Below are positions 1,715 through 58,766 of a stretch of DNA of 64,000 nucleotides, in pieces. The translations under genes were made by a program, and so were the position numbers. Source of the DNA: Tricharina praecox (taxonomy: Eukaryota); NCBI RefSeq assembly GCF_024521635.1, contig NW_026250405.1, forward strand, positions 682,001 to 746,000, written 5' to 3'. The notes beneath the pieces were generated by a model. The model was not told where the DNA came from, did no database searches, and saw nothing but the letters and a program-made list of their open reading frames with translations. The first letter of the stretch is position 1. Each line of letters opens with the position of its first letter.

Positions 1715-1800
1715 GGCCGCGTGGCCCAATGGCAAGGCGCTTGACTACGAGTAACAACTCCGATATCAAGAGATTGCAGGTTCGAGCCCTGCCGTGGTCA
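1715..1800 (+). tRNA. tRNA-Arg(ACG) with 14-nt intron (1751-1764)
   Basis: Cloverleaf GGCCGCG...CGTGGTCA, anticodon loop CTACGA^A, intron GTAACAACTCCGAT after position 37, T-loop TTCGAGC, oligo-T downstream. Confidence 0.95.
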
Positions 1801-2258
1801 TATGATCTTAACACTTCCTGCGGATTTCTTTTTCGGTGTTTCCCCTTCCGTATTGGTGCTCGAAACGAATTTTGCGGGATATCCTTCACGGACGCTAGTG
1901 GAGGCCGATAGGTTGAATCCCGAAACCCAGGTTTTGTCTCCGCCGTGAAATCGCCGTGCACCGCTCGAGTGTCGGTCAAACGTCCGACGCTGCGTCTTGC
2001 TGACCGGCAGCGGCGTGGTCACGCAGCTTCACTCAGTAGCAGAAACGCATGGTTAAAAACAATTTCGCCATCACATGACCGTTTCCCAAATGCTCTTTCG
2101 CACTCCCTGTAGGAATGCCGGATTACCGTAAAGTATGAGCCGTGACGGTAAAGTGTCCACGTAACGATGTAAGCTTGGCAGTAATGTTACTGCCAAGCTC
2201 CCCACACGCCACACGCCACACTGCGCCATCCGCATGACTCCGCCATGGCCGGTCGATC

Positions 2259-3480
2259 ATGGCCGATACTAGTGGGCGGGCGGCAGGCGGCGGGCGGCGG
2301 ACGGCGGGTGGGGTGAAATCTCTGCCATTCACTACACTCACTGAGGAAGATGCCAAACCCCAAGTCCAACCGCGATGTGGCTGCAGCTTTTACCAAGTCC
2401 ATGAAGCTTGGCCTCAAGGTACCTACCTATATGCTCTAATAGGGGTGCTTGACATTATGCGAAATCAAAAGCTGATGGCTGGGTGGATTGAAGTGCCCAC
2501 GGATGGGGTGCAATGCTTGCGGGGCAGACGATGCGATGAACACTACTCGCCAGGAGTACGAACGCGCCGCGAAGTGGAAGAAATGCTAGACGGACGAGCC
2601 TTGAACATCATCACCGACGAAAGCGCCGACATCACAAAGCATCGTATCGTTAGCATGAGCGTCAATGTCGGTCGTTTGACCTTTTTTCACAGGGCAGAAG
2701 ATGTTGGCAGTCGTAGTCTCACTGCACGCAATTACACCAATTGGATCCTAGAGCAGTTGGGAGTTATTACCCGCGGAGACTACCATCGGATCAATTATGT
2801 TGCCACAGATACCTGCTCTACGATGTTCACTGTCTGGAGGCTACTTGAAGAGGATTTCGAACAGCGGCTTCCGGATATTCGGATTCTATTTGTTCCATAT
2901 GATTCACACGGCCTGCAACTCTTAATCAAAGACGTGGTTGAGAAGATTCCGTGGTTTCAGATCGTCAGTCAGGGAGTGAGAAAGGTTGTGTCCTACTTCC
3001 GCGGTGCACATCTTCAGTATGCGATTCTTCGAGGCCGTCAACTACATCATTACGGCAAACATCTTTCGCTTCTTGCTTCAGTCATTACGCGATAGGGGTA
3101 GGACACAACCTTTCTCACTCCCTGACTGACGATCTGAAACCACGGAATCTTCTCAACCACGTCTTTGATTAAGAGTTGCAGGCCGTGTGAATCATATGGA
3201 ACAAATAGAATCCGAATATCCGGAAGCCGCTGTTCGAAATCCTCTTCAAGTAGCCTCCAGACAGTGAACATCGTAGAGCAGGTATCTGTGGCAACACAAT
3301 TGATCCGATGGTAGTCTCCCTGAGGGATCTAGCTGAGGCGAGTTCTTAACGTGCCGAGCCCTCAAATGATCTCGAAAAAGACCTTTCGCAAACTGAGATC
3401 ACAGGTAGGCGGGCTAAGCGAAAGTAGACTACTCGGGAAATAAGCGGTTTGACTAGTGTGTATAGACTCAGTAAGAATTC
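2259..3480. mobile_element. Degenerate, rearranged hAT-family transposase remnant
   Basis: The + ORF contains IITDES, VATDTCSTM, PYDSHGLQL (CxxH motif with C->Y) and ends ITR* where the hAT TRW motif is expected (TGG->TAG). The minus strand at about 3325-3480 reads PLISRVVYFRLARLPVISVCERSFS, resembling the hAT C-terminal dimerisation motif. Confidence 0.75.
2775..3319. repeat. 222-bp inverted duplication (arms 2775-2996 and 3098-3319, 101-bp spacer)
   Basis: The arms are reverse complements. The same peptide MFTVWRLLEEDF...VRKVVSY appears in ORFs on both strands; one mismatch was seen (2797 vs 3297). Confidence 0.95.
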
Positions 3481-4230
3481 TTCGGGAGAATGATTGTACA
3501 TATTCTATACATACTTCATATATACAACGATTCATGAGCAACAAAATTTTCCAGAAAATGGCAGCGGCCACGCCGGGCAGAGCGCCTCTATTTGAGGTGG
3601 TGGCGGAGGGGAGAGGAGAGCGGAATATGGCAGCGGCGAGGAGAGGAGAGCTGAATAGGTACAGCGGCGCGGAGAATGGAGCAGAGCACAACGGCGTCGA
3701 GAGGAGGGTTGAGTACAGAGGCACAGAGGAGAATAGAGGAGAGCAGAGCACGGCCGTATATACAGGAGTACACCAGCTGTTAGTCTTCCCTACCAGGCCC
3801 TCGCATATCACCGTGAGGCCAGTGTCACCGCACTGTCGGAGGGCCTGGTAAGGGAGACCGACAACTGGCGTACTTCTGTCTATACTGCGATGCTATGTTT
3901 TCCGCTCTGTACTGCTGCACTCCGCTCTCATCTCGCCGCCGCTGTGCTCTGCTCTCCTCTCCGCACCACCATACTCTGCAAAGTTCCCATCTACAAATGT
4001 ACACATCTACCACTATTCATTTTGCAGTGTAACTCTTGTTTTCCCACGCTTTCTGATCGCAATCTGGTAGGCAAGCATGCATGCATGGAGCTGGGCATGT
4101 GAGAAAATATGAATCTCGAGACCGAACCAGCAAAAGTTGCCGTTAATCTTCTGGAAGAAAACTGAAGACATTTTGATATCTCTGGAGCCCATAAAAAAGG
4201 CAAAAAGGTATTTTTCACACTCATGTTGAG

Positions 4231-4302
4231 TGACCACGGCAGGGATCGAACCTGCAATCTCTTGATTCGTAGTCAAGCGCCTTGCCATTGGGCCACGCGG
4301 CC
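4231..4302 (-). tRNA. tRNA-Arg(ACG), intronless
   Basis: 72-nt cloverleaf GGCCGCGTGGCCCAATGGCAAGGCGCTTGACTACGAATCAAGAGATTGCAGGTTCGATCCCTGCCGTGGTCA on the minus strand. Confidence 0.97.
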
Positions 4303-5112
4303 GATTATGTTTGTTCTCAGAATTAACACACTTGAGCAAACTACGCCGGATATGGCTTGGATGGACACTTGGGGATCGTCCGTAGGCGCAGTCTGGCGAG
4401 GGGTGGGGGGTTGACCGCGCATGCGGCAATCAAATTGACGAAAGCCACCCGAGCTGGTGACCGTGGCCGAAAAGTTTTCACGATTGTGCGACTGCACATA
4501 CATAGTAGGTGGCAGCCATCAACGGAGTGAAGCACACACTCTCACGCCATCCCATGGCCCGAATGTTCGCATGTAAATCAACAATGTAGTATAAAAACCA
4601 CCTGGAAACACATGAGAACACTCGCTCCGCCACCTGAGTGGTTCTGGACACCTTGCCTGCAAAGCCCGTGATCTCCTACCATCCCGCGGGGCCCCAATCG
4701 GCGCGGAGATCCCGCCGTCTCAGAGACCGTAGCCTGTGGTGGACTGTGGGCAGCCTGAATCAGTGCTACCACTGCCAGACGATATCGTAGGCACTGTATC
4801 CACTGCCAAAACCTTACCAGTCGATCGGATCGCATGCGAATGCGCACTTGGCAACGCAGTCCTGGGTGGAGAATGTGAGGCACAAGTAGAGACTCTGGTG
4901 GAACCCGTGAAGCTCAAGCAATGCTGCGCCCATCTGTTCTACGCTCCCCTCTCACGAGCAGACTGCTCAGTGATCTTATTCTAGACGTCAAAAGGCGGTC
5001 GTATGGACTGTATTTAAGAAGGGTGGCTTCCTGACCCCATAACGAATCATCCTCACAATCCTCACAATCCCCACAATCCTCACAATCATCTACATACACC
5101 GATACGAAAACC

Positions 5113-5792
5113 ATGCTCTTCAAAGACGTCTTCGTCCCCGCCCCGGCCGTCGGCGACCCTCGCTGGAAATCGCAGAATCCCATCCGCATCCTCTGGGGAA
5201 TCATCGCCACCTCTGCCATCGGCCTAGTGATCCAAGGCTACTACATCAACCTAGTGTGCGATATCCCCCACCCCCACCCCCCACCCCCCGCATTCCTGGA
5301 CAGTCCTCCTGAGTAGTAGCTGAGAATCCAACCATAGAACCCCGTTCCTATGCTGGTTCATCCTGGTCTCCGCCCTGGACTTGATCCTCTTCTTCAAGAA
5401 GCATCTGAGGCCCACCTACGCGGTATCGATCGCATCGATATGGATCGTATTTGCGCTGTTCTGTATTGGCTGGGCATCCTACCGTATGTCTTTTTTTGCC
5501 CCGTGCCTCTGGTACGACCACACGTCGCGAGGGTATTCGGATATTGTCCAGTTGATCGTTACCGTGGTCGTGCTGTGAGTTTTCTCCATCCAAAGGGTAT
5601 GCGTACATATGTACGGATACTGGCTGGCAAGTACTGACTTCTGGTCCTGCCGGAAGGGCGTTGTACCTTGCGTACTTGACGTTTGCGGTAAAGGCGTTTA
5701 GGCATGGAAGCGTGGTGGGAAACAGAAGACAAGTGTGGATGACTGCGACGGGAGAGGGACCCTCTTTTCAGGGGTTGGGTCCATTGCAATAG
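5113..5792 (+). CDS. Small multi-pass (about 4 TM) membrane protein, about 171 aa; exons 5113-5255, 5338-5574, 5657-5792
   Basis: In-frame splicing via GTGCGA..TAG and GTGAGT..AAG introns with CTGAG/CTGAC branch sites. Four hydrophobic segments; upstream TATTTAA. A paralogue at 9137 conserves the exon structure. The C-terminal frame differs from the paralogue by one base, so the tail may be frameshifted. Confidence 0.6.
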
Positions 5793-6078
5793 GGCGCTGT
5801 ACGTGAGGCGGGTGCCGGGGGCTTCTGAGCGAGAAAGGTTTAATGCTGGGTTGATATTATTTTCTTATTTAATGGCGAGAATGGGGGGTTTCGAGATTTT
5901 CTCTATGTAGTGCCCGCGAATGCTGTTTTTGCAGACTTCATCAGGCTCCAAAACCAACCCGAGTGATCGAAAAGAATAAAGGATCTTTATCAGCCATGGA
6001 GAGGAAACACCAAAAGATAATGCCTGATGAGCCACCAGAAGGAGCAAAAAGATATTCACAAAAAGTGATGAGATCATA

Positions 6079-6164
6079 TGACCACGGCAGGGATCGAACC
6101 TGCAATCTCTTGATATCGGAGTTGTTACTCGTAGTCAAGCGCCTTGCCATTGGGCCACGCGGCC
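6079..6164 (-). tRNA. tRNA-Arg(ACG) with 14-nt intron
   Basis: Same body as the intronless copies plus intron GTAACAACTCCGAT. Confidence 0.95.
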
Positions 6165-7358
6165 TGTGATGATTGCCTCCGAGAAACTGGAAAATTTAGA
6201 GTATTAAGCTAGACATAGCAGCCGTGGGCAGGTGCTTGGGGTTGGCCATAGACGCGGTCTGGGCGTGGGGCAGGTGAATGCATGGCGGTTCGATAGATTC
6301 AGAATATGAGTGCTGCAGTTGGGTCAACGGAGCCGCCCGAGCTGGCGGCTGTTCTACAAAGGTTTTTACGACTGTGCACTAGTTGGAGTGGTGACGGCCT
6401 TTAGATATCTACATAACGCGAACCAGGAAGCGAATAAGCTTTCCCCGCAACCACCACATCTTAGCCTAAATATGGCACAAAAACTGAGGAAAAAAAACCG
6501 AAACTGTGTGGCCCCGGCGATGAAACGGGAACTAACCTCTGGAGGTCAGTTTCTTCACCAGCACTCAGTACCGTATTTTAACTTCAACCATGGAGAAAAA
6601 AGCGGGACTGCAATGTGTCTGCTATTAAAGTTCCGGTGAAGCCTATTATTCAGACTTATGGCCGAGTACACTGAGAACTGCCAAACACTCTGTTTACCTC
6701 AAGGTTTTCCAGAAACTGAAACCGAACAGTACGGTATTCGGTGTCCCGACGGGGAACTGAATTTTACTCTAAAACTGGAACTGAAAACCGAGGCCATCCA
6801 AAGGGAGTAGCCTCATCAGATCGTAGGTATAGAACACTCTAGACCCTACAGAATACGGGTGTACTGTACTCGAATTGCATCATCATGCTTTAACTTCGTT
6901 CAGTGGGTTTCTTGAATGAGTGATGGGTGGTGTAGCTCGGCCGCTGAATTGTCGACTCGATCAAATTGCATCCAATTGACTGAATCCATCCTCAGAAGGG
7001 GTGAAGCAGCTGCGGACGCCGATCGCAGCGGAAAAGACTCGGGTCGAACGCTTGGTAACGTGACTACATAATCATTCTTTTGGGCCGCAACAAAATACCA
7101 AATATATATTGGAGGAAGAAACGCCAGCAATGGAAGTCTAGGTAAGATATAATCGAGCGCAGTAGACCAAGGAACCAGTAGATAAAATATGAACCAACAA
7201 AGCCAATGAAAATGAAAAGGAAAAAGAAACAATAGTATATCGACGAATTATGGGAAAAAAGAAGGGGAAAAAAGGTGAGGGGGTTTCCCGAGATCACCAC
7301 CTATTCATGTAACCACACTATCAGTATAACGCACACCGGGGGGGACTTTCGTTTCAAC

Positions 7359-8151
7359 TCACTCAGTATCCGAGTCATCGGTGCGATGTATACGCGTCTG
7401 CCACAACAACAGGGTGTGCGCCAGCTCCCTGAATTCCTTGACCAACGCCACGAACACGGTGCATTTCAACAATGCACTCATGTTCCTAGCGCAGTGCTCC
7501 GTGACAATGTCGCGGAGACTGGCCTTGCGGCTTGGCCATGCTTCCCCATCGGCGTATTCGTCCTCGGTCTCATCGTAGACGTAGGCCAACAACAAAACAA
7601 TCTCGTACTCCCAATCAGCTCCAGAGGCATGACGCCGAAGCGCCGAAGAGATGTTCCTCGTTGCCACGTCTTTGAGCTCGGCCATGAGCATCTCGTCTGC
7701 AAACATGGCCAGCTCCGCGTGCAAGAGGAGCTGATTGGTGGCGCCTTGAGGAAACGTGTAGGTTCCAGTATACAGGAGCCCCACGAATGCCTCGAAGACT
7801 TTGGACGAGACGGGATTGGGAAGCCTCGCGGAATACGCAGAGGCTTCCTCACCATCTGCCGACAGCAGGCTGGCGAAGTAGGGACAACGCCCCACGAGAA
7901 GCTCCCGATGGAGATGGTAGGTGTCGGCCCCAGCCCACCAACCATTAATAACGGCAAAAAGCACGAGGTTCTTGAAGATGTTGGTAAGAGAATTCTGGTC
8001 AGCGGAGACTGAGGATGAGGGCGGGGTGTGATTCTTACTCGGCCTTGAACTCTTGGGCTTTGGTGGTCGGCCGCGGCTGCCGTGGCTGCCGCTTCTCTGA
8101 GATCCTGGACGACTACCTAGGAATCTTGGGGATTTTCTCTGCACGAGGCAT
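7359..8151 (-). pseudogene. BTB/POZ-domain gene copy A, probably disrupted
   Basis: BTB-like YHLHRELLVGRCPYF...VFEAFVGLLYTGTY...HAELAMFADEMLMAELKDVA. Relative to copy B the ATG is at 8151, codon 13 is TAG (8113-8115; CAG in B), and the intron acceptor is CAA instead of CAG (7981). Confidence 0.75.
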
Positions 8152-8305
8152 CTTGACGGTGTGTTCGAAGCGTAAGGTCGGTGGAGAGAGAGGTAGAGTG
8201 TGTGCGTGTGTTTGTGGACAGAAAGATTGTGTGTGTGTCTATGTTGGTGAGAGAGGAGAAGGTAGGAAGAGAAAGAGAGAAGATAAAGTAGCGCGGCAAA
8301 GGATC

Positions 8306-8459
8306 GGCGAAAATGAAGATGAATGAGAAGTTGAGAAGCTGAGGTTTTATTCAACTTTGAAGAGCCATCTTAGCTCTCTGCTGCCACAAGCTATGATACC
8401 TCCACCGTTCGAGGCCACCCAATCCGGCTAGTGTGGCTATGATCCGACTTGCCACTCCT
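8306..8459. repeat. Dispersed ~200-bp element, copy 1 (upstream of BTB copy A)
   Basis: Shares GAAGTTGA..GTTYTATTCAACTT.GAAGAGCCATC...CGTTCG...ATCCGGCTAG with the copies at 28981, 43022, 58560 and 63442. Confidence 0.75.
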
Positions 8460-9136
8460 GTCAGCAAAAAGAAATATATACTCGAAAAAGGAAAGACAAA
8501 AGCCAGCGATCATCCAAGTCCCTTGGCTTTCGAGTACCTACCCGCGGCCCGTCACACGCCGGTGCTTCCTATCTTTTCCAGTACGAAACCCTTGCATAAT
8601 ACCCGTAGTCATCGTGGGGAAAAGAGTCGGTGAAATTTGAATGGGAGGATCCATCTTCCAAGCAGGTGGGGAACTTGGAAGTGCTGTTGTATTCTTGGCT
8701 TATGCGCAATGCACATGGCGCGTTGGTTCAATATTCGAATTGTGCCCCGGTAATAGTAACAGCCTCCTACATACAACCTCTTGACGGAGTCGAAACTGTT
8801 GCACTAGTTACCGGTAAGTACCACCGTTTGAGCTACGTACCGGTACATATATATTTCCCCATTGGACGGCAGCTCAAGTGCTGCATGTAGGTGGGGTTTG
8901 TGAGACACGGCTGAAGAATTTTCACGCGGTTGGAGAACCCAAGCGAATACTCACTATGCGGTGTGACCACCTGCCAGACCGCCATTCGATCCCGCTCCCC
9001 GAATAGATCCATGGGGGCATTGGCTATGCATCTACCCGTCGTCAAGGCGGTCGTGTAGGCCATATTTAAGGAGGGTAGTTCCCGACCCCACACACCACAG
9101 ATGATTCCCACGATCAATTTAAACGAAACGAAAACC

Positions 9137-9840
9137 ATGCCCATCAAGAACGTCTTCGTCTCAAACCCGGCTGTCGGTGATCCGCGCTGGAAAGACCACA
9201 ATCCCATCCGCATCCTCTGGAGAATCATCGGGGACCGTCGGCGTCAACCTAGTGGTCCACGGCTACTTCATTGATGTTTTCACGTGCGATTTTCCCTCTT
9301 CCCTAGCCAAATGTTCCCTCCCTAGGTAGATACATAGGTTGCTAAAGTAATCACAGATGGCCGATCCAGATCTAGTTCATCCTCCTTTCGGCACTGGACC
9401 TAATCCTCTTCTTTAAATGCCATCTACGGCCCACCTACGCGGTATCGATCGCATCGATATGGAGCCTGCTGGCGATAATCTTCACTCTGGCCGGGTGTCT
9501 CCATGGTGAATTATATTACCAGTTACGGCACCGGTGTAATTACTTATGCGAATGTTACTCGGTTCATTGGGTACCTTATAGTGCTGTGAGAATTCCTTCC
9601 GAGGGGGTACGGGCACGGGTGCGAGTTCTGGCAATTGATTGCTGACTTCCAGTCACTCGCGAAAGGGTGTTGTACCTCACGTACCTGACGTTTGCGGTGA
9701 AGATGTTCAGACCGTGGAAGCGTGGCGGGAAGCAGAAGATTAGTCAGGGTGACCCCGAGGCCGGAGTAGGACATGGCGTTTATGAGCTGGATCCGTCAAA
9801 GCAAGGCACTGTCCAGGAGTTAAGCGCGAGGCCGCTCTGA
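9137..9840 (+). pseudogene. Disrupted paralogue of the 5113 membrane-protein gene
   Basis: MPIKNVFVSNPAVGDPRWKDHNPIRILW matches the 5113 gene, with a conserved upstream region and introns. There is an extra G near 9230 (frameshift) and TGG->TAG at 9373-9375. Confidence 0.75.
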
Positions 9841-10245
9841 GAGGGAAGGTCTGATGTTGGCCAATGTACATATTATGGTTAATAGTCGGGGATAGGGGTT
9901 CTTTTCATCTCGTAGGAACGAATGAGGTAGCTAGCTTTTTTTGGTCTCCTGATTATTTCAACGACTGGTTACTGAGGGCACTCGTCTGCCATGTGGTCCA
10001 GGACGAAAACCTTCTTCCAGCCTCTGTTCAGGTGGAACGATCACGGGGGAAGACAGCGGAGACAACAGTAGTGGGAAAGATTACTAAATTATATTCCTAA
10101 GTAAAAAAAAAAGAATGAAAAAAATTACCCCCAGGAGATGGCCGTAGATTCAAGGGTATATGCTCCTTATTGCTTCTCTTCAAGCTCCAAGGGGTACTCC
10201 ACCCCCAGCAGATACATACACCCCATCATCATCTTCGTCCTGGCC

Positions 10246-11031: not shown

Positions 11032-11209
11032 CGCTCTCCAGGGGATGTGTTCTTCGGAAAGCTGGAGTTACTGTTAGCGATGGTCCAAACCCTCAGAGTA
11101 GGAAGTTGCATGTACGTACACTGCGCGTTGTTCTGCAGTCAAGGTTCTAAATCCAAGTCGAGTGTATCGACGGTGCCAGTGGATAGTATGGGTCGGGGCA
11201 AAGAGTGTT

Positions 11210-11385: not shown

Positions 11386-11912
11386 GGCGGAATGTAAGTT
11401 AAGATGTGAGTTAGGGCGTGAACTCCCGTCACAGCAAACCTTCAAACGAGCAGCCGTGAATAGCAAGTTTTGGTGCTATTATTCTTGGAACGTTTTCGAA
11501 CTCAAGCCTAGCTCCAGAAACCTTCAGCCTTTCACACTCAAAGTATATTCGCGATGCACTTCGCATGCGAGTGCTAGCTTGTGAAAATTCCCTGGAAAAG
11601 CGACGTACACGGGATAAGACCGCGTCAAACCCCGTATAGATCCATTCCGTCCCCAAGCTTATGGATATTCAGGCTTCACGGCCTGTATACATATGCCCGC
11701 TTCGGATCACGTCTTTCTTGGTAAGGTCCCTCGCCTCCTTATGAGAATTGGGTCTGTTTGGTGAGCTCTTAGTAGGCTTCGGGGTTTTCCGATTAGTGGA
11801 ACTTTCCGCCTGCCTCGCCCCCCGAAAGTTATGACCGACCTCAACCATCCGAAGCTACCGTGCAAATCCAAATTGATGTTGAAACAATATGCTCTCAAGA
11901 CAAACAATTACT

Positions 11913-11997
11913 GGCCGCGTGGCCCAATGGCAAGGCGCTTGACTACGAGTAACACTCCGATATCAAGAGATTGCAGGTTCGATCCCTGCCGTGGTCA
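11913..11997 (+). tRNA. tRNA-Arg(ACG) with 13-nt intron
   Basis: Same body with intron GTAACACTCCGAT; TTTTT terminator downstream. Confidence 0.95.
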
Positions 11998-13333
11998 TAT
12001 GATCTCATCAGTTCCAATATGTATCTTTTTGGTGTTTTAGTGGGGGGCGACGGGACGAGCACGTGAAGGACTTTGTGAGTGAGAATCCAGACCCCCGTTC
12101 CAGGGGGAAAGTGTTAGAGGATGACCTTGAGGCGGTTTTGGGAGCCTTAGGAAAGGGAAGAAACCTCCGGACGACGGTTATCCGGTGGAGATTAAACTTT
12201 TCCTTCGTCTGAGAGACTTTGAGTTTATATTGCGGCGGTGGTGGTCCAGGGAGATACTCTTCTGTAGTCACGAAGAGCTATTGAAAGCCTGGGAGCTAGC
12301 ATTGTGTGATCATGTGATCTCCGTTTATCGTCAGAGTGCCACTGTACAGCAATTTTGCAAACAGAAAGTTCGAGTTTAGTGATTCGTTAGCATCCGATGT
12401 GTTCGTTCGAGGCTGGTTGAGACAAATCTGTACAAAGGCCGCAGCGAGACCGGTGCTCTTTCTCCGGTACTCTGTCATGTCACTAAGCCCGGTACTGGCT
12501 CGTATCTTGTTGAGCCGATCCCCACATAGAGCAGTCCTGAGAACGAATGGCATCCCGACAGCATTTCCCAGTGGGCTAGTACATCATCACATACGGGGGG
12601 TCGGAATCGGTGAGGCCTCGCCTATCAGTCGTCGGGTAGGCAACTCCACCTTGAATGATTCCTCATTCTTCTTGGTCCATTAGTTGGGGCAGAAGGGATC
12701 CTTGCGGGTATTAGACATCAGGAGGATGCGGGCGACAAACACCCTTGGTAGTTAACTGAGAGCAGAAGATAAGGTGCATGATGTTCCTCGAGTTGCTATG
12801 AAAGATTCTGTAGTCGCAAAGCCTGTGGAGGATGTTGGTACGGTAGCCATGTTCAGGAGGGTGTCCCAATCGGTGAAAGCGTTGGTCCTGGTATGGAGAG
12901 CAGTTAAGAACATGTTTCTCCAGAGTAACGAGTTAGAACATCCTTGTATGTAAAAGTTTACATCATACTTCTACATACCGCTCAAATACCTACCGCTCAA
13001 ATATCTACCGCTCAAATACCTACTCGACAGTGTGCAAGAGATGTTTAGGACTGCTGTTAGGTATTATGGACTCACGGAAATAGCATCGAGGGGTTGAGAC
13101 GACTTTCGGTTACCTCAAATTCCAAATTGAATCCACTCAACTCTCTGTCACCCGAGCACCGTCCAGCGTCTGCTAGTGAACCTTTAAGTCACGTGTCCGG
13201 TCACCGGCCCTATCCTATGTATCTTATCGTTAGCTTAGCTTACCCATCTTCAGCCGCCAACCTCCATTATCCCACGCAGCTTGAGCAAGCACCTTCAACC
13301 ACAGCACACCCTCACCTCCCTCCATCCCCAATC

Positions 13334-15623: not shown

Positions 15624-17478
15624 ATGGACAACAAGCAACCAGCCAACCAACCAACGACCACAACCGCCATTAAGCCGCAGCCGGTACTCGCGACCCTCCC
15701 GTTCGACCTCCTCCACGCGGTAATCGCACACATCCCGGACGCGTCCTCCCTCGCCGCCCTCAGCCGCACCTGCCGGACGCTCCACCAGTTCGTCGCGCGC
15801 CAACACGGCTGGCAAATCTTCGTGCAGGCCCGGTTTCCGTCGATCTACGCCACGCTATCGCCGCCGGAAGATGTCGCTGCCGTCGCCGCCGTCGCCGCGG
15901 ACGCAAAGTTCTGGCAGAGACACGCGCAGGAGCTGACGCTGCTGTCGCACAACTTCGACCGTCGCGCGTTCGTCGCAGAGGTCCTGGATCCTGATGTGTT
16001 GATCCAGAAGCCGCTGAGGTTCTATGCCGCGAGGCATACTCGCGGGGATTGGAGGGGTGGCGCGGCTGCCCAGGGTGCGCACTGGAGGCCTGCCGCGCCA
16101 CAGTACCATCGCTGGGCAGCGGCTGTCCAGGTCAAGGACGGGAAGCAGAGTGTCGGGTATCATCCCGTGCTGCATGCTGTGGGCAACACCCTGGGTATGG
16201 GCGCCGGTCAGGATCTGCTGATTAGGCGCCGCGGAGGGGTCAAGGAGAAGTGGTGGGTGTATGCAGATGCGGCGCACGTGGCCGGCAAAGACGATATCAC
16301 GGCGATGCAGCTATTTTCGGATGCGGATTCGAACGGAGATGAGGCCAGAGCGCTGGTCGGAAGAGCTAACGGCACGATGTCGTGCATAAGGCTTTTGACG
16401 CCGGATGCGACGGCCGGTGGCGTGGGCTCCGTGGCGGTCGATATGTCCCTCAATACTAGGGGACAGCAGGTACGAAATGCGAGTATGCTCGGGGATTTGG
16501 TGTCAAGTGTGCTGGGAAATGATCTTGTTGCGCTGCATAGACTACCACCTGAAGGTGGTGGTGGGGGTGGCGGGAAGGTGATGGTGGATATCGCGAGCGA
16601 AATCACGACATGGTCGACTGAAGATCAACCATGGAGCACCCAGCTGCTCTCGCCAGGTTTGCTCGCGGTTGGGAAGAGCAGCGAGGATCCACTCGCTATT
16701 TACAGCATCACCCCGACCGGACTGACGCTCTTACGCAAGTACGATGCCTCGGGCTGTGTCGGCTGCCAGACATCCTCAGTGAATCCCATCGCGCCCTTCC
16801 CAGACATCAGAGCCAAATCAGATGTGTTCATCACGGGATGGTACACCGGTGCCACACTGTAGGTTTCCATCCTTTCCACCTCTCGGTTCCCGTGGATTAA
16901 CATTCCGCAGAGTCCACGACCTCCGTTCGCCAGACTTGCACGTAGCCGAGTTCTTCGACCCTATCGATAACTCCAAGATCTATTCCCTGCTACCGATCGG
17001 ACGCGAGAGGATCATCGCTGGCGGAGCCCGCCACAGTCTCCTAAAAGTGTTCGATATCCGCATGCCGGGCGGCCGCGCCTACAGCTCCCCGCTGCACCAC
17101 CCATCCTTCGACGCAAACAACAGCTCCGACGAGCGCACCCACGGCTGGGCAACCTACTTGCACAGCTCGACCGGCAACCGCTACACGCCGCACCGGAACA
17201 CCCGCAACGCTGTTATACGGGAATCGCCCGTGTACTCGCTCGCCTCGGGATCCCCTGGCGGTGGGGAGGTGCTTGCGGGTGTGGAGGGCGGGGTCTGGGA
17301 GTTCGATTTCGTCGGAAGGAAAGTGGGTACTGGCGAGAAGAGGGCGGGACGCAGGAACTGCGTCATGTATGAGTTTGAGAAGACGAGGATGTGGGTGCAG
17401 GGCCGTGAGGAGTTGATGGGTAGGGCGGGCATCATGAGGGCGACTGGCGCGTTGGATGGCCGCTGGGGACCGTTGTGA
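15624..17478 (+). CDS. F-box protein with WD40-like C-terminal region; exons 15624-16858, 16911-17478
   Basis: F-box LATLPFDLLHAVIAHIPDASSLAALSRTCRTLH; WD-like segments HDLRSP, IYSLLPIG, GGARHSLLKVFDIR, ESPVYSLAS; intron GTAGGT..TTAAC..CAG in frame. Confidence 0.85.
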
Positions 17479-18963
17479 AGGCGCCGGAGCATGGGGGTAG
17501 AATCGTTTTGGTCGTTACGGGGTTGCTACAGTATTTGCACTTGTGGGATTAAGTATTGGCGGTTTTCGAAAATACAAAAGGTGGGATAGTGTGAGTCATG
17601 GCGCATGATGTTGCGGGTTAGCTACAGAAAAGAATTCATGGACAATTTTACTTTTACATCCTGCTTTCTTTCTCTCAATATCCCCGTCTCTGAACGTTCA
17701 CGTCTAGTCGGCAGTCACGGCGAGCAATGTGAAGGACAGTATAGTAAATCCCTTCAACCAACGAGCAGGATACGCAGAATGAACGACGTATTATCGAATA
17801 TCAATTCCACCATATGTCACTCGTTATTTACTCTCTAGCAATGATCGGAGCCCGCCGTAGAAGGAGCCATGTAAGGAACGAGCCAAGCTGCAAGCTACGA
17901 GCTCAAATACTATCCTATGGATCGTACCGCGCTAGAGTTCCAAATCGTCTCAGAAATGGCCACTCCTCCACCCACCCAGTCGCACCACCAACACTCCAGA
18001 TTAGGACTATAACTATATAGTTGTTCTTTAGATACCATAAAGGGTTTCAATTATCTCATGGTGGTTGTGAGGATGGTTTAAGGCCCACTTTCCACACAGA
18101 AGTGCAAATTCGCGTGATTTTCACAGCTTTTCACGACCATACTGCCCCCCCCCCCCACCACCACATGAAATCCTGCCCTCAACCCCTAGGATTCAGAAAA
18201 TATGATGCAGTCGTTCTTGAAATTGCTGTGACGTAGCGACAACCCCCAGACCTTGCGCGATCGTTGGATTTTGGGCGCAAATATCGACATTTTCACTGAA
18301 CGGAACGGTAAATTTGAGTGATCCCGTGTGATTGTCAGATTCCGGCCGGCGGACAGTAGACATCTGGGGGCTTTGCTTTCCCGAATCTTTTCCCGAATCA
18401 CGGGGGGTTACTCGAGTAGGTACTAGTTACTGGTTATTGCGAAGGACATCGACATGCGTCGAAGGCTGCCGATGATTACTATAGCTACATAGATAAAGTG
18501 GGTGAACCGTAGTACCGTACCGTACCGTACCGGCGTATCGTGTGTGCCTATGTAACTACGTACCTACCTGCCTGTATACGGGCGTCGGGGGCGTGCAAAT
18601 TTGGTACCTACCTAGCTACAATTCGCGATCGCGACGAGTAACTTGCAAGAACTATCGGTCCTCGGAAGCCTTGCTCGGCCGGTATGTACTGAGGCCACAG
18701 CTACGGCAGCCGCTACTAGGCACTCTAGTATGTACATACCGTGTCGTGCCGTGCCAGTGCGGTGAGAGCGGCGAGTGACAGGTTGCAGACCGGCGGTGAG
18801 ACCGGCGGTACTCTGCATACTAACAGCAGCAGTAGTGTGTAATCAACACCACACAAGCCCCCCCCCCCCACTAGGTCCACTAGATCCACCAGATCTACGC
18901 CCTAGGGTACAAGGAATGCGTAGTCGCCGAGATATACGTTAACGTCGTAAAATGGGCTGCAGA

Positions 18964-26981: not shown

Positions 26982-28980
26982 GTCCATCACCGGTGATCAC
27001 AATCTTCATTAGTTCCAGCGAGCGAGCGAGCGGCGATTATCCGTCCTCGGTGGTTCGAGGTGTAAGCACCAGTACTGGTACCTTGGTTATCAAGACAACC
27101 GCCGTTCGAGCAGAATACCAACAGATTGGCGAAGCGGCCTGAGCATCGCATCGCAACGCATCAGGAGTCGTTCCGAAACCCGGGCCTTCCGAAACCAGGT
27201 GATCAGGTAGGTGCTCTGGAGTAGAGTTATCTGTGTCCGGCACATCTTCCATGCTGGAATGGAATGGAAGGGAAGGGAAGGCCTCAACCCAACCCCCAAC
27301 CCCCCACCTGCAACCCCCACCAGCTCTGAAGCTCGTGCGGTTTCAATAGCAAGCCACCGCCATGGCATGGCAGCACATCGCGACGCGACCGCACAAGAGG
27401 AAGCGTCCGACCGACCGACGTCCGCAACAGTTAGAGTCTGGTCTGGTCGCATTCCATGCCAGTACTCTGCGTACGGTACGGTGCTCTAGAGTTGAGGTTT
27501 GTGTGTGTGGCAGGCTTCCGGCTGAATGTGATTTAGGAAGGTCAGGTCGGCGTTGCCCTGTCTGGCCGGGCACCCGGGGGAGGGGGATCGTCTGCGCACA
27601 TACCATACATACGGGCCATAGTCCGTAGCCGGGCTTTGGAGAGTCGAGACTAATGGGAGTGGGACTGAGAGTGGACTTCGCAGTTGCCGCTCCGTACCGT
27701 AGTCGTCTGTGTCTGGAGCAGGGTAGAGTTGAGTGGGGTGGAGGGAGTGGAGTGGATTTGCGTGACCTGGTGCTTGATTGATCAATTGAGTTGAGCCCGC
27801 TGCTGGGCTTCGGATTCGCGATACTACACACACTCTCGATAGGCTCCCCCCGTAAGGCTTCGGGCCGGATCCAAATTGCAGGTGCTTTTTTACCACCCCC
27901 TCCCCTTCTCCCCCCTCCCTCCCCTTCTCCCCCCTCCCACCCCCCAGCGGATCGCAATTTCCAGCCGCAGGGTCCAGCCGCCTGGAGCTCGATTCACCCA
28001 ACCAGCTGGGAGGATGTTATACCCAGTACCGTAGTGGAACAACCAACCAACTTACGGGCGGGCCCCCGAACCCGAACCTGAACCTGAACCTGAACCTACC
28101 GCACAGCAACTCGACACGACTGCAGTCATCCATCCATCCATCCTCCTGGCCGTTCCCCTGTTTTTGATTATTATTTTTTCGCTACTTTGGCCAATTGTGG
28201 AGGGGGCTCAAGCGCAGCGCAGGCTACCTACGTAGCGATCCGGATCCTCCTCCTCCCTTCCCCCCACTCCACTCCACCGGCTCGGAACTCGATTTCAACG
28301 GTAGTTAGATACTCTACCTAGATATCGCCCGCGGAAATTCATCTCCCATCTCCCACTTAGACGAGTGGGTGTCAGCCTCACGGAACGCAGAACGCACGTA
28401 CGCACGCCCACCCGTAGGTAACTGGTTATGTCGAGTAACTACCAGTCGACTCCATGGGCGCCTGGTGCGAGCTCAGTTCAGAATGCAAATAATCGTGCCT
28501 AAAAATACCCGACCCATAGTTAGCCACCGCGTGCGTGCAATTGGGAATTTGGAAGAGAAGATGAACAGGGAAAGAAAGGAAAAAAAGAAAAAAACCAACA
28601 CGTTCGGAGAAGCCGGTGGGAATGATATGATGCCAGTCATACTCTATGTTACAACAAATTGGTGTCGATATGGATATGGCCGATCTCGAAAGGGCCCGCT
28701 TCAGATACGGTACTCTGGTGGGATCCTTTCCGATCAGATTTCTGTTGGTAACTAGCATACGGATGGAGAGATGGATGGTTATGTAGAATACTATTATGTA
28801 TGCCAGTGACGGTGACGGTCTGCATCCCCGTTTAACTGCCTGCCTATGCTTGTGTTTCAGTCTCTGATCGTGATGATGATGGTGATGACAGATCACGTGC
28901 ACCAAACTCGGTAGATACTATGAGAGCTCTCGGGTTCGCAGTTTTCGGTTCCCTGGCGGGGGCCGCGTGATGTCGCCCTG

Positions 28981-29163
28981 GAAGGGAAATGGCGAGTATG
29001 TAGGATGATGGAGAAGTTGAGGTTCTATTCAACTTCGAAGAGCCATCGAACATGGCTCTCCTCCGCTGCCTACAACGTTCGGAACCACCTGATCCGGCTA
29101 GCCCTTCATCCTATCTTATCTGATCCCCTAGATATCTCTCCTCTCATGGTGGTGGCAGACAAC
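28981..29163. repeat. Dispersed ~200-bp element, copy 2 (solo)
   Basis: 61 nt (29022-29082) identical to 43067-43127; two hairpins. Confidence 0.85.
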
Positions 29164-39542: not shown

Positions 39543-42500
39543 CTCCGGTTTGCTCCCACGACTCACGAGGGATCTAGGTGGTTACCTAGTGGACGCCACG
39601 AAACGCACGGCGCGAGGCACCCCCCCCCCCCCCCCCCCTCCCTCTCCACCTCCTCCGAGCCGTTGCATTGTGGAGAAGAGAGATGCCGCGGCGGCTTTCC
39701 GTGTGGAACCTGGGTAAGCTCGTGGAGTCGGTACCTATGTTAGGTTGTTAGGTGCCGACGGTACTCGACTCGTCCTCAGGACTACATATCAGCCGACCAG
39801 CCAGCCTTCCAACTCCCCCGTACCGTACGTAGGCCCCAAGGCTGCGGTGCAGCCCTAGACGAAACGCGGCCGGACCGGTCACCGAACCCAGTTACATACG
39901 CAGTTACGCAGTTACGCAGTTACGCAGGACGGGAACGAACGAACGAGCGAACGAACCAACAGCCAATGAACCAGCGGACGAACCAACCGACCAACGAACC
40001 AACGAACCAACGAACCAACGAACCAACGAAGGAACTTGGAAGGAAGCACAAAGAAGCAGATACAGAAGCAGAAGCAGAAGCAGAAGCAAACGGCCCAGCC
40101 CGTTGGCCGGGGACGCGATTCTATGTATGCATGTATGTGTGTAGGTAATTATGTATGTACGGCACGCAACGCACCCAACTACGGCAAGTAGGCACAGGGG
40201 ACGCCGGCAGGCAGGCAGGCATTCAGTGGTGGTGGTGGTAGTGGTGGTGGTGTGTCGTGTGTGTCATGCGCTACTACCGGTAGCTAGTAGTCACGGCGGC
40301 GGCGGCAACAGCGGAAACGACTGGAAAGGCTGGCTGGATGGCTGTGGCCGAGATGTGGCCGATAGTCGGACCTCCTGCATCGATTGCATAATCGACGGCC
40401 CCGCAGGCCGCATCGTCACCGCGTCGCCCCATCGCCGCCAATCGTGTCTTCCGCAACGCCCCAACGCCCAACGCCCAGATCAACGCCCAGCTCAACCCGC
40501 GAGCGAGGAGTGAGGAGTCCCCGGTTTTCGCATTCGTTTTCTTTTGTTCGTGCAGCAGCAGCAGAAGCAGCACCAGAAAGAAGAAAAAGAAGAAGAAGAA
40601 AGAAGAAGAAACAGCACCATCACACAAGGCGGAAGTGTACTAATGTTGAATGTTGGTATGAAGCATGAAGATACCGAGCTATCGTTGGCTGGCTGGAGCG
40701 CTGCGAGTGTCCCACCCAGCACCCCTCCCGGCCCGTCTCGCTTCCCCCCGATATTCTACCTACATCATACATCATACATACATGTGCATACCCACCCACC
40801 TCATGCCTGCCTGACTGACCGGCCGACTGTGCGGTGAAGCAAGTAGAGCATGCACGAAGACACGCAGGTAGCCAGCCGTTGGTATGATATGTATAATGTA
40901 ACCATCTCAGGCTTCAGCCAGTGTAGATTGTGTATGGTTTTTTTTATTTTTACATCCCTTTGCTTTTGCTTTTGCCCTCCACACACACTCCGAGACTCCT
41001 CAGAGTCCGACTGTCCGAGGAGGAGGAGGAGGCGGCGGCAGGATGATGATGATCCTCGCCACCCCCACCACCCTCAGCCTTGTGTCTCGGGCTGCTTCCT
41101 CTCGCCGTCACCCTCACGCTCACCCTGCATCGAGAGCTCAAGAAGAGAGAGAGGGAGAGGGAGAGGGAGAAGAGAAAGATCTAGACTGAACTAGAGATGA
41201 GGAGGGTGTGTTGCGTTTGCACTTCCTTTTGGAATCGGAGATCGGCCCCGACGCCGCCGTTCATGGGCTTCGGTTTTCTGATGTGAATGGGCAGAGACAC
41301 ACACACACACCCACACACCCACATACACCCGCACGCACGCACACCGTTCGTACAAACCTACACTATCGACGCGCATCGGGAATCAGGATCTGATATAATA
41401 ACGGTGGCTTCGGTTGATGGTGAACCGTGACTTGGAAGGGAAGGGTGGGGATAGGGCGGCGGCGAAGCACTGCTGGAGAAGAGGGGAAATAGGTACTAGT
41501 GAATGGGGGGGGTGGGTGTTTTTTTCCTCTTTCTTTCTTTCTTTCTTCTCGGGAGCTGTCTGGACTCTGGTGCGTTGTAACTTGTGCCCCGGGAGTGGGT
41601 GCTTGTGATGTTATAGCCCAGGTTTGCCTGAATAATGTGATGAATCTGGGAAGGCGGAGTGGTTCAACGATTCGGATAGAGATAGGTAGGTCGTTGACTG
41701 AGCACTGTACATAGGTTTGAAGTACTTTGAAGTACTTTGCATGTACGATGAAGTGTGCATGTCCTGGTAGATAGTTGAATGTACCCAACGCGGTGGCATT
41801 GGATGGAGACGGTAACTGTAGTTACCTGTGTTGTATTGGGTGCTGTGCTGTGTAGCCTCCCTGCTGCCCTCATCCGTCGACGCGGCGGTACGGTTGTAAG
41901 AAGTAATACAAGCATAACTGGACGAGGGGGGGAGGGGGTGGGGCGCGTCGGCAGCGGTGGATAAAACACCGTGCCAGTGGTTCAGATCTTGCGGGATGCC
42001 CTTTCGTTCCGAATCGATGGAGACAGCTCCAGCAGTCGCAATGTTTTTTCTTGGCTCCCTGGTGTGTGTGGTGTGTGGTGTGTGTGGGTGGGCTTCCGAG
42101 TGTGCGTGTGTGCGTGTGTGCGTGTGTGCGTGTGTGTGTGTGGGCTGGCTTCCGAGTCGAATGGGTAGATAGTTCGAGCTCAGGGTTTAGCTGAAGATGT
42201 TGTTGGGTGTGTAACAAGGTGTTCGATGTGCCGGAGCATTGCAGCATTGCAGCCTTGGAAAAAGCAAAAGCAAACTGCGGGCTGAAGGTGGGATCTCTCA
42301 GAAAAAAAAGACGTTATGCCCAAGCGCCCAATGGGTTCCCAAAGCGGCATCCTTCCTTTTTCCCTCCCACGGGCGCCGCTCGCGAAGCGAAGGACCCCCC
42401 CTTGTCCGTTTTATTCTTTCTGGCCTTTCGTGCGCAATGCGGTTTAGCCTGGCAGTTGACGATTGGGTTGGTGAGGCGAGGTGAGGCGAGGTGGTGGGGA

Positions 42501-43021
42501 GGGAGCGTGAGGTTGGATCACGGTGCGCACAAAGGTCTTCTCCATCGACAACCTCCCTAAGCTACTCTAGATCAACATCGGTCGATAGAGTATCGCAACA
42601 ACAACAACAGCTAAAGCGCACACGTGTTGTCTCAAACCGATAGCACTTCCGTTTCAGACCGATTGCGGCGACTGCGGCTGCTGAGCCGGGAGAGAGAGAG
42701 AGCTCTTGGCCGGATGATCCAAACCAAGGTAGGTATCTCAGCATCTGAAGGTGATGATACCTCCGAGGCGAGTGGTTGTCACTTGGAGTAGTTAGTTGGT
42801 ACTTAACTGCCGGTACCCAACCCAGCGAAGCAAATCCGATCCTTCATGGCTAGAAGCTGTTGGCAGCCGGACCCCGAGCTGTGATGACTGCTGGGTATGT
42901 CGCAGTAGACCGATCAGCAGCAGCGTGCTGGAGAATGAGCGACTCGACTGTGTGGATGTTGAATGTTGAGCGGGTAGGACAGGTAGATACTGAAGAGCGG
43001 CAGCTGCAGAGGTGACGCAGC

Positions 43022-43262
43022 CTTGGAAGTGAAACGGCGAGTATGAAGGATGATTGAGACGTTGAAGTTCTATTCAACTTCGAAGAGCCATCGAACATGG
43101 CTCTCCTCCGCTGCCTACAACGTTCGGTGCCACTCGATCCGGCTAGCCCGGCTATCTCCACCATTCGGACCCACCGATCCCACTAACTAGCACCTCCTCC
43201 CATCTTATCTGATCCCTATATCTATCCTACATCTCGCTGCTCGCATGGTGATGGCAGACAAC
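43022..43262. repeat. Dispersed ~200-bp element, copy 3 (solo)
   Basis: Colinear with 28981-29163 from GGAAG..GGCGAGTATG to GGCAGACAAC. Confidence 0.85.
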
Positions 43263-50381: not shown

Positions 50382-50415
<34 letters not shown>

Positions 50416-55594: not shown

Positions 55595-55666
55595 GGCCGC
55601 GTGGCCCAATGGCAAGGCGCTTGACTACGAATCAAGAGATTGCAGGTTCGATCCCTGCCGTGGTCA
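55595..55666 (+). tRNA. tRNA-Arg(ACG), intronless
   Basis: 72-nt cloverleaf with oligo-T downstream. Confidence 0.97.
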
Positions 55667-56711
55667 CTTCATTCTTTTGTGTTTGTGCTTTTTTTTTTTT
55701 TTTTGCCGGTCTCGCGAGTCGCGACTAGCCGTGCTGCGGTGGCCCTACTATGTTGGTAGGACACTCCTTCACCTAGCCGGCTAATAAATATGTAAATAAT
55801 CCGTGCAATCCGCGCACGGACGGCGGGATGGTGCCGTTCCGCTATGTAGACCGATGTCCCGGACCGGGACTTCCAAAAGTCTGTGGTGTACTATGTGTAC
55901 ATAGGTAGCCTAGGTGGACACTTAATCAACTCTATTGGAGCTCAAGCTCGCAGCTCGGCTCGTTCCTTACGCGGCTCATACAGTATTGAAACGGTTCGCA
56001 ACCTAGGATTAAGAAACCATTGTGGCCGATGGTACTGGTTATCGGACGGTCACGCAGAATCACTCGAGGTGCTCGCGGGGCGGGGGATCTCGGAGTTTTG
56101 TCGTTCTTGAATCTACCCAGCGAAATGGGGTTCTTCTTCTTCCCCGAGAGGAGCGCGAGCGGCGCCTGTTGGTACAGACTTTAGCTGGAAAGGAATGATG
56201 GAGCGCAGGATCGGTATTTACTTATCTATAGTACTCTACTGTGACATATCAGGCCCATCATTGAGGTACCTAGTCTGGATTCTGGTCCTTCAATTGTACG
56301 TAACCAACATTTAATAAGAATCAAGTGTACATATTCAGTTCAGAAGCTGGATCATACCTAGATGTACCTAATGTACCGTAGTCGGGCCGCATCGTGGAGA
56401 TCGAGTGCCCCGGATAGGAATCCCCACGATAGGCGGCCAGCGGTCTTACATATAGTAGAACGGCTACGGCTTGAAAGTTAAAGGACGTTGTGTTCCGTAC
56501 CTGTTCATCCCATATTCTATATATCCTCTTTATGCGGCGAGACGGCGGATTGTTCCACATTCGATGCTCCTCCGCACAGCTACTACCCCCTCCCCCCCCC
56601 CCAATCGCCCATCACCCACCCGCAATCCCCCGCCGCCGCCCTCGTAGTCCGAAGCAGAACAAAATAAAAAACATCTAAAAAAGAACCCAGAAGTCTGATG
56701 ATGTGATAATC

Positions 56712-56783
56712 TGACCACGGCAGGGCTCGAACCTGCAATCTCTTGATTCGTAGTCAAGCGCCTTGCCATTGGGCCACGCGGCC
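56712..56783 (-). tRNA. tRNA-Arg(ACG), intronless, T-loop TTCGAGC variant
   Basis: 72-nt cloverleaf on the minus strand. Confidence 0.97.
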
Positions 56784-57603
56784 GGGATTGATGGCTTGAG
56801 TTAGCCACACAGACTTTGTACATATTCACCCGGCTTTCAGTTATTATTCTCCCAGGACTGAATCAACCGGCTGTGCTTGCGGTGGGAGACGGCGTTGAAG
56901 GGTGGTGGGCGATGAGTCAGTTTTCTGGTATGCTAGGTAGTGTATTTCGAGGCACCGTGATAGAGTAGACCGTAGAAACCGTGCTGCTCACGGTCAACGT
57001 CTGGATGACTTTGAGAGGAGCCGGTTGAGTAGAGTTCACCACGGGATTACTTGGGGATATTTTTCCCGAGAGACTCCGCCGGCATCCGATACTGACCTAC
57101 GAAGGCATCTATGCGTACATGGGGGAGAATGATACATGACGGCCGATACAATAACACTCGTGTATGGTGCTTGAGGAGGAAGCGGGTGAAGTAGACTCCT
57201 TGGGCGTGAGATTGGAAACCTCGAATGGAATATTGTCTGATGGGAAAATTAAGTACTTGTGCCATTGAAATTTACATATTTTCTATCTAATCATTCTTTT
57301 GGGCCGCAACAAAACTCCAAGCTTAACGATGAAATTATCGGATATGTACCAAATAGATATTGAGGGAAGAAACGCCAGCAACGCAAATCTAGGTAAGATA
57401 CCAATGGGCACAGTAGACCAAGGAACCAGCAGATGAAATATGACCCAACAAAGCCAATGAAAATGAAAAGGAAAAGGAGAAAATGGTATATTGACGAATT
57501 AAGGAACTTAAAAAAAAAAGGTGCGGGGGTTTCCCTCGATCACCACCTATTTATGAAGCCATATTATCAGCATACCGCACAGCAGGGGGGCTTTCGTTTC
57601 AAC

Positions 57604-58381
57604 TCACTCGGCATCCGAGTCCTCGTCACGAAGTATACGTGTCTGCCACAACAGAAGAGTATGGGCCAACTCTCCAAAGTCCTTGACCAACGCCACGAAC
57701 ACGGTGCATTTCAACAATGCACGCATGTTCCTGGCGCAGTACTCCGTGACAATGTCGCGGAGACTGGCCTTGCGGCTTGGCCACTCTTCTTCACCGGCGT
57801 ACTCGTCCTCGGTTCTCTCGTAGATATCGGCCAACAACGAAACAATCCCCCAGTCAGCTCCCGAGGAGGAATGACAACGAAGCGCTGAGGAGAGGTTTCT
57901 CGTTGCAGCGTCTTTGAGGTCCGCCATGAGCATTTCGTCTGCAAACATGGCTAGTTCTGCGTGCGATAGGAGCTGATCGGTGGCGTCTGGAGGGAAACGT
58001 ATAGGTTCCAGTATATAGGAACCCTACGAATGGCTCAAAGACTTTGGACGAGACTGGATCGGGAAGCCTCGCCAAATTCGCAGAGGCTTCCTCGCCATCG
58101 ACCGACAGCAGGCTGGTAAAGTAGGGACAACGCCCCATGAGAAGCTCCCGATGGAGATGGTAGGTGTCGGCCCCAGCCCCCCAGCCATTAATGACGGTGA
58201 AGAGCGTGGGGTTCTTGAAATAGCTGGGAAGGGAATTCCGGTCAGCAGAGACCGAGAATGAGGGCGGGTGTGATTCTTACCTGGCTTTGAACTCTGTGCC
58301 TTTGGTGGTCGGCCGCGGCCGCCGCTCCTTGGCGATCCTGAACGACTGCTTGGGAATTGACTTCTTTGCTGCACGAGGCAT
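57604..58381 (-). pseudogene. BTB/POZ-domain gene copy B, single frameshift; exon 1 58381-58281, intron 58280-58224
   Basis: MPRAAKK...EFKA^SYFKNPTLFTVINGWGAGADTYHLHRELLMGRCPYF splices in frame. One extra C near 57992 (TTTCCCTCCAG vs TTTCCTCAAG in copy A) shifts the frame; this could be a sequencing error. Confidence 0.75.
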
Positions 58382-58484
58382 TGTGATGGTGTGGTGGTTG
58401 AAGCGTAAGGTTTGTGATGAGAGAGATAGATAGTGGGGGTGTAGGCTTGCGGAGAGAGAGATTGTCTGTGTGTGTCGGTTGATG

Positions 58485-58522
<38 letters not shown>

Positions 58523-58559
58523 GAGAAAGAGAGAAGATAACGTGGCCCGGCAAAGGATC

Positions 58560-58694
58560 GGCGAAAGTGAAGATGAATGAGAATTTGAGGTTCTATTCAA
58601 CTTCGAAGAGCCATCTCAGCTCTCTGCTGCCACAGACTATCACACCTGCACCGTTCGGGGCCACCACTAGCCACTCCTCCTATCTTATCTGATC
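58560..58694. repeat. Dispersed ~200-bp element, copy 4 (upstream of BTB copy B, 3'-truncated)
   Basis: GAGGTTCTATTCAACTTCGAAGAGCCATC...CCTATCTTATCTGATC. Confidence 0.8.
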
Positions 58695-58699
58695 TCAAA

Positions 58700-58766
58700 G
58701 CAATCTCTTGATATCGGAGGTGTTACATACTCGTAGTCAAGCGCCATACCATTGGGCCACGCGGTC
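58700..58766 (-). pseudogene. Truncated intron-containing tRNA-Arg(ACG) pseudogene
   Basis: The minus strand reads GACCGCGTGGCCCAATGGTATGGCGCTTGACTACGA-GTATGTAACACCTCCGAT-ATCAAGAGATTGC and then stops, with no T-loop or 3' acceptor strand. Confidence 0.9.

Follow-up and report, generated by a model that had tools for sequence, protein, structure and literature searches.

How can one family of transfer RNA (tRNA) genes, with nearly the same exons throughout, contain both intron-bearing and intronless members? The question is raised by a stretch of 64,000 nucleotides (nt) from Tricharina praecox (contig NW_026250405.1, positions 682,001 to 746,000 of the forward strand), hereafter called the window, in which nine loci of tRNA-Arg(ACG) were detected: five intact intronless genes, three intact intron-bearing genes, and one truncated intron-bearing pseudogene. 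Isodecoder genes tend to be all intron-bearing or all intronless, as stated in the available text of PMC4090602 and restated for fungal pathogens in that of PMC10946435, and on this point both sources agree with an earlier note on the same DNA, which had been made from the sequence alone. That note interpreted the mixture as intron gain or loss caught in progress, with gene conversion homogenising the gene bodies. Our analysis makes another reading fairly probable: the window would contain a long-lived mixed tRNA-Arg(ACG) family, in which the intron state is stable within each gene lineage, and not a recent gain or loss homogenised by conversion.

By ARAGORN, eight tRNA genes were called in the window, and the same eight loci passed the Rfam tRNA model RF00005 at 50.8-62 bits (gathering score 29), leaving the pseudogene undetected. 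Neither ARAGORN nor the Rfam tRNA model indicated a tRNA type other than Arg(ACG) within the 64 kilobases (kb). The intact intron-bearing genes, which make up three of the eight and are all physically linked in one cluster, are gene A at 1715-1800 on the plus strand, gene C at 6079-6164 on the minus strand, and gene D at 11913-11997 on the plus strand, with Rfam scores of 50.8, 51.3, and 51.4 bits, respectively. Genes A and C carry the same 14-nt intron, GTAACAACTCCGAT, and gene D carries a 13-nt intron, GTAACACTCCGAT, one base shorter; because of its intron, D is called as Thr by ARAGORN. The first run of five T residues downstream starts at +29 for A, at +15 for C, and at +29 for D. All of the intronless genes are 72 nt long: B (4231-4302, minus strand; 62 bits by Rfam, five T at +25), E (55595-55666, plus strand; found by both ARAGORN and Rfam, 16 T at +23), F (56712-56783, minus strand), H (60272-60343, minus strand; likewise found by both, eight T at +29), and I (62231-62302, minus strand), F and I being paralogues by segmental duplication. 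Pseudogene G, at about 58700-58766 on the minus strand, has three mismatches in its 5' exon and a related 18-nt intron, GTATGTAACACCTCCGAT, after which its 3' exon continues for about 13 nt. The sequence reading bears out the earlier count of five intronless copies and four copies with introns of 14, 14, 13, and 18 nt after position 37; the span given with that count ended at 58766, short of H and I, two of the five intronless genes.

When the two 36-nt halves of the gene were used for search, the 5' half was found nine times (eight exact copies and one with three mismatches at 58731-58766) and the 3' half eight times (six exact copies and two with a single T-to-G change), against none in 100 shuffles in either case. 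This change, T59G, gives the T-loop sequence TTCGAGC and is present in intron-bearing A and intronless F alone; the 3'-half search confirms the two copies, at 1715 and 56712, previously reported for this variant. Apart from T59G, itself found in both classes, the 72-nt exons are identical between intron-bearing and intronless genes. Since both classes share the same exons, they form one family of common origin, and the intron state must have changed at least once within it.

Comparison of the intron-bearing with the intronless genes places the insert at 37/38, after ...CTACGA and before ATCAAG. As described beforehand, all four introns of the window end in CCGAT, and the antepenultimate G (position -3) lies opposite C32, with which it is predicted to be able to pair in each of them. 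The minimum-energy fold of C and D is the cloverleaf plus a small intron hairpin; enforcing the C32-G(-3) pair costs 2.3 kcal/mol and is predicted to put the 3' splice site into a 3-nt bulge. For gene A, the unconstrained fold reaches -29.8 kcal/mol against -27.4 kcal/mol for the cloverleaf, which thus lies 2.4 kcal/mol above the alternative. The minimum-energy fold of intronless gene B is not the cloverleaf either, and for this reason the in-silico fold criterion is uninformative. Genes for tRNA that RNA polymerase III (Pol III) transcribes have a consensus A-box and B-box. The A-box and B-box regions as well as terminators of five T are retained in A, C, and D; the 25-mer of the T arm, which represents the B-box region, is present in eight loci with at most one mismatch, and a run of at least five T begins +9 to +30 downstream of all eight intact genes. 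Judged by these sequence features, the eight intact genes appear to resemble working Pol III genes. The introns of A, C, and D are predicted to be of the canonical protein-spliced 37/38 type. They resemble the introns processed by the Sen/TSEN endonuclease and Trl1 in being located one nucleotide 3' of the anticodon, in length (13-18 nt in the window, for a range of 6-133 nt given in the available text of PMC4090602), and in leaving an intact mature domain. The possible C32/G(-3) pair, with the 3' splice site modelled in a bulge, adds to the likeness, and no structural difference was recognized. The kind of element is known, the intron being of the canonical tRNA type and its host an ordinary Pol III gene, and no new mechanism is revealed. 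What is new is a well-documented case of an uncommon mixed family state.

The history of the two classes was then read from their flanks. Scores of flank pairs were judged against the flanks of 92-93 unrelated metagenome tRNA-Arg(ACG) loci, giving 184 leader and 186 trailer comparisons as the null over 64 tests. The three intact intron-bearing genes are parts of a duplicated unit of about 125-130 nt, located at 1709-1841 on the plus strand, with copies at 6046-6170 on the minus strand and 11907-12037 on the plus strand, and consisting of a leader of about 6 nt, the intron-containing gene, and the trailer up to and including the T run. By self-BLAST, the pairwise identities of the copies are 92.8% (125 nt), 89.8% (127 nt), and 91.3% (126 nt). 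The trailer TATGATCT follows all three genes, as had been recognized before, and the trailer scores of A-C, A-D, and C-D were reached by 0, 1, and 0 of the 186 null comparisons. Between A and C, 25 of 33 trailer positions match and eight differ, and the intron is identical at 14 of 14. A second duplication links F and I: 56712-57294 matches 62231-62867 by self-BLAST, the homology extends from the gene along a spacer of about 570 nt into a BTB segment, with 399 of 487 aligned spacer positions identical, and the F-I leader score was reached by none of the 184 null comparisons.

Flank divergence amounts to about 18-28% in both lineages, and still the intron state is uniform inside each significant flank group, A, C, and D being intron-bearing and F and I intronless. 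Among the window loci, no significant pair was found with homologous flanks and different intron state. Links across the classes, or to G, were not significant over the 64 tests, 3-13 of the 184-186 null comparisons reaching their scores; T59G is the sole character in conflict with the flank groups, and position 59 is hypervariable in relatives. Since the intron state is uniform despite this divergence, conversion tracts across 37/38 must be rare. Frequent conversion of whole genes would have either spread the intron through the cluster or erased it, and neither is seen.

Related genes were collected by scanning metagenome contigs with the anticodon arm as a query, allowing 0-30 nt at 37/38, and at least 121 stretches were obtained. 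The matches listed number 127, of which 113 have a normal 5' half and collapse to 99 unique loci; among these, 23 are intron-bearing and 76 intronless. Genes with exons identical to those of the window were intact and intronless at all five unique loci among the matches listed. In one relative of this group, represented by L009/L010 and a second time by L079/L080, a decayed copy lies between two intact intronless genes in a span of about 1 kb; the decayed copy is 5'-truncated and has an 18-nt insert at 37/38. The exon type one compensated acceptor pair away, GGCCGCATGG, carried an intron at all seven of its unique loci among the matches listed, and an eighth copy with indels (L115) is intron-bearing too. 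Five of seven distinct introns listed for this type end in TCCGA(T/A/C), resembling the CTCCGAT of the window, and those of L114 and L115 end in TCTGAA; for L017, with one base different in the acceptor stem, the end is TCCGAA. Such similar intron ends point to an old intron common to these fungi, with a shared constraint as the alternative. Among all distinct introns listed, 17 of 20 have G at -3, as expected of spliced introns.

The mixture of states is not confined to the exon type of the window. For one other exon type, genes that agree over all 72 nt of their exons occur both with and without an intron under the same assembly prefixes (L043/L056 and L033/L085), and the same holds for a second (L095/L116 and L101/L065). 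Both of these types are distant, each mixed pair was seen in two assemblies, and the introns are unrelated to those of the window. On the question, raised in the earlier note, of whether both classes are ancient in relatives, both states were indeed found there, and no orthologous locus was found among the at least 121 stretches. One candidate for such a locus was rejected: positions 1-296 of L048 and L055 show about 80% identity to window 17196-17491, and an intronless tRNA-Arg(ACG) lies about 700 nt away in the relative, but the window has no tRNA there. The presence of the gene in one and its absence from the other indicate that the positions of tRNA genes are subject to turnover among these fungi.

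From these observations, the following course of events is proposed. In a soil ascomycete, one mature tRNA would be encoded by two old gene lineages. The lineage with the intron would comprise A, C, and D together with the dead copy G, and would have spread locally as the unit of about 125 nt; the intronless genes would be B, E, and H plus the segmental-duplicate pair F/I. Maturation of precursors with the intron would depend on the tRNA splicing endonuclease and Trl1 ligase. The exons would be kept identical mainly by strong purifying selection on a single-isodecoder tRNA, and the intron state would be passed on stably within each duplicated lineage. The mixture would then resolve slowly, probably from ancestral intron-bearing to intronless copies.

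Several points weigh against this scheme. The identity of the A and C introns (14/14) beside their diverged trailers (25/33) would also fit conversion of gene bodies, and so would the sharing of T59G by A and F across the classes. Weak resemblance was detected between the trailers of A and F (9 of 186 null comparisons as high) and of A and I (4 of 186), and between the leaders of I and G, A and G, and F and G (reached by 3, 9, and 13 of 184, respectively); such likeness among these four flanks could point to an origin of F and I from the intron-bearing lineage by intron loss. The earlier description of the intronless trailers as unrelated to that of the intron genes is thus correct in the statistical sense, with the copies at 56712 and 62231 showing this non-significant likeness. 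As for the relatives, loci from several species may be pooled in one exon type, and a common assembly prefix need not mean one genome. No flanks orthologous to the window loci were found among the at least 121 metagenome stretches, the top flank scores in this search belonging to unrelated exon types, and stability at orthologous loci is suggested here by the flanks of paralogues.

These same points bear on the best surviving alternative, namely that intron loss or gain is now under way, with frequent conversion keeping the exons identical and moving T59G between the classes; we consider it rather unlikely. Besides T59G and the contrast of intron and trailer in A and C, it is favored by the finding that dead copies are only intron-bearing, both in the window (one of four, G, versus none of five intronless) and in the relative L009 (one of one versus none of two), and by the intronless state of all five unique loci with window-type exons listed for relatives. 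Drift of this kind between all-intron and no-intron states by intergenic conversion is proposed in the available text of PMC4090602. Opposed to it, in addition to the uniform intron state of each flank lineage, is the variability of position 59, which is T, C, A, or G in related metagenome genes among the matches listed. As this position varies freely in the wider family, a recurrent neutral change is plausible, and T59G may be such a change. Identical exons beside diverged flanks are expected from purifying selection on the sole isodecoder, and conversion is unnecessary; the intron/trailer contrast between A and C fits a constrained intron as well as a converted body, the numbers being too small to choose. 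A rare transient is also hard to reconcile with the same mixture in at least two other exon types, whose introns are unrelated. Of the earlier interpretation, what stands is a common origin and at least one change of intron state in the past; a change in progress is not supported, the lineages having stayed uniform while their flanks diverged. Homogenisation of the bodies by conversion is not needed for a constrained tRNA, and its sole specific support, T59G, lies at a variable position.

Alternatively, selection may maintain both forms, for instance because of different routes or timing of maturation or because the intron, once freed, has a function. Mixed families are seen in the window and again in two other exon types, conservation in A, C, and D is higher for the intron than for the trailer, and freed tRNA introns of yeast can regulate messenger RNAs (mRNAs), according to the available text of PMC13079951. 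The intron sequences are, however, unrelated between exon types, the counts are small, and the same facts are explained by drift with rare conversion, which leaves this possibility improbable. The broader proposition that fungal tRNA-Arg(ACG) families are kept mixed in several ascomycete lineages for the regulatory benefit of two maturation routes or of the freed intron, and that the all-or-none rule fails systematically for them, deserves similarly little credence. Least probable of all is that the intron-bearing copies are non-functional relics, untranscribed or unspliceable, and that the intronless genes alone supply tRNA-Arg(ACG): one of the four intron-bearing window loci is clearly dead, the intron-bearing copy seen in the relative is also dead, and the minimum-energy fold of A is not the cloverleaf, but intronless B fails that fold as well, A, C, and D have the exons of working genes save for T59G, with A-box and B-box regions and terminators, and G at -3 and the conserved intron sequence were kept while their trailers diverged.

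A long-lived mixed family differs in several respects from the systems described so far, as far as the available text of the sources goes. In the drift-by-conversion model (Yoshihisa 2014, PMC4090602), which proposes stochastic drift between two fixed states, the mixed state of the window corresponds to the predicted intermediate; the difference is that the window state seems to have lasted long and is met again in other lineages of fungi. In mixed families of different origins, as understood in the same source, the two classes would differ in their exons and go back to different tRNA families, whereas the window classes share identical 72-nt exons except for T59G. Among nematodes (PMC12530127), Pristionchus pacificus has one intron-containing gene among 15-24 intronless genes for each of tG(GCC), tV(CAC), and tL(CAG), and Diplogasteroides magnus has two intronless tL(CAA) genes in a mixed family. 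The likeness lies in one anticodon being served within one genome by genes with and without an intron, but the nematode cases are single outliers of uncertain function, whereas three of eight intact genes of the window bear introns, share a duplicated flank, and form one cluster. In Schizosaccharomyces pombe, intergenic conversion is known among dispersed tRNA genes (Amstutz 1985 and Heyer 1986, as cited in PMC4090602). Such conversion would leave the gene bodies identical beside diverged flanks, and T59G could be transferred by it; unlike the prediction for frequent conversion, the intron state of the window is not homogenised. No account of mixed intron status in fungal tRNA-Arg(ACG) was found in the literature searched, and a prior listing in GtRNAdb is possible.

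The window cluster is a clean counter-example both to the all-or-none rule and to the separate-origin account of mixed families, and the metagenome scan suggests the same mixture for tRNA-Arg(ACG) in other fungi. The family provides a natural system for the neutrality of tRNA introns and for the rate of gene conversion on tRNA genes. It also allows one to ask whether A34-to-I editing or modifications of the anticodon loop differ between intron-bearing and intronless precursors.

The loss of the 3' part of pseudogene G is associated with a dispersed repeat. The body of G ends after ATCAAGAGATTG(C), and no T arm was found at G even with three mismatches allowed. The truncated end of a repeat copy at 58572-58708 joins the truncated pseudogene, and this junction indicates that a deletion or rearrangement took away its 3' end. 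The repeat family, about 140-250 nt long with copies 71-90% identical, is also present at 28967-29139, 43012-43260, 63787-63938, and 8378-8459.

A segment of a BTB-domain gene is present in three copies, at 7096-8419, at 57347-58665, and, in pieces, at 62866-63872. Each copy has a minus-strand tRNA-Arg(ACG), namely C, F, and I, at a distance of 563-941 nt. The BTB gene at 7196-7970 is expressed, as indicated by an RNA contig with a spliced intron. C was considered as a positional paralogue of F and I beside this segment, but forced alignments of the spacers gave 52% and 46% identity, and the relationship is unproven; the spacer of C holds a high-copy repeat. This element, at about 6534-6802 of the window, shows a summed contig depth 20- to 100-fold above its neighbours in three runs, including the RNA-like run X3, and many contigs end within it.

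The protein genes of the window include those with ankyrin, BTB, RPN7/PCI, F-box, and Myb domains, and GT-AG introns are visible in RNA contigs; for the RPN7 fragment, the nearest atlas clusters are mainly of Ascomycota. Run X3, whose behavior is that of RNA from the same species, contains spliced mRNA contigs without any difference to the window, which cover the neighbouring protein genes only. Two soil-metagenome runs contain 74% and 48% of the sampled window words, and their contigs break at the repeated tRNA bodies. Over C (6115-6126) and D (11948-11960), soil contigs show other intron variants, belonging to other copies or to related fungi.

Several further tRNA-like matches came from the metagenome loci. 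The second match in L025 was rejected as the same isodecoder; located at 587-682 on the minus strand of a short contig, it is a tRNA-Arg(TCG) interrupted by a 24-nt intron, and it lies downstream of an intronless tRNA-Arg(ACG) at a distance of about 250 nt. In L069, L089, L107, and L005, the D loop of tRNA-Arg(ACG) is broken after ...GGCCCAATG by an insert of about 50 nt, for which L098 is the uninterrupted counterpart. This insert starts with GTAAG or GTATG, contains a CTAAC branch-like motif, ends in AG, and looks like an mRNA-type intron. Ten mostly marine loci (L021, L026, L028, L029, L040, L052, L058, L060, L112, and L119) have the same anticodon and T arm, but their anticodon stem is separated by 25-30 unrelated bases from a 5' part of the GGGCCTGTGGCAAAATTGGAT type. 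In another group of eukaryotes, such an insert may represent a non-canonical intron close to the D arm.

The regions 2775-2996 and 3098-3319 form a perfect inverted repeat of 222 nt, with 101 nt of spacer between the arms; it overlaps an open reading frame, at 2259-3095, at the end of that frame, which has a weak match to DUF659. One arm shows many differences in one soil contig, and the repeat may be either a foldback element or an assembly artefact. Intergenic homopolymer runs of up to about 45 C were also observed, at 63090-63135, 50383-50412, and 39620-39640.

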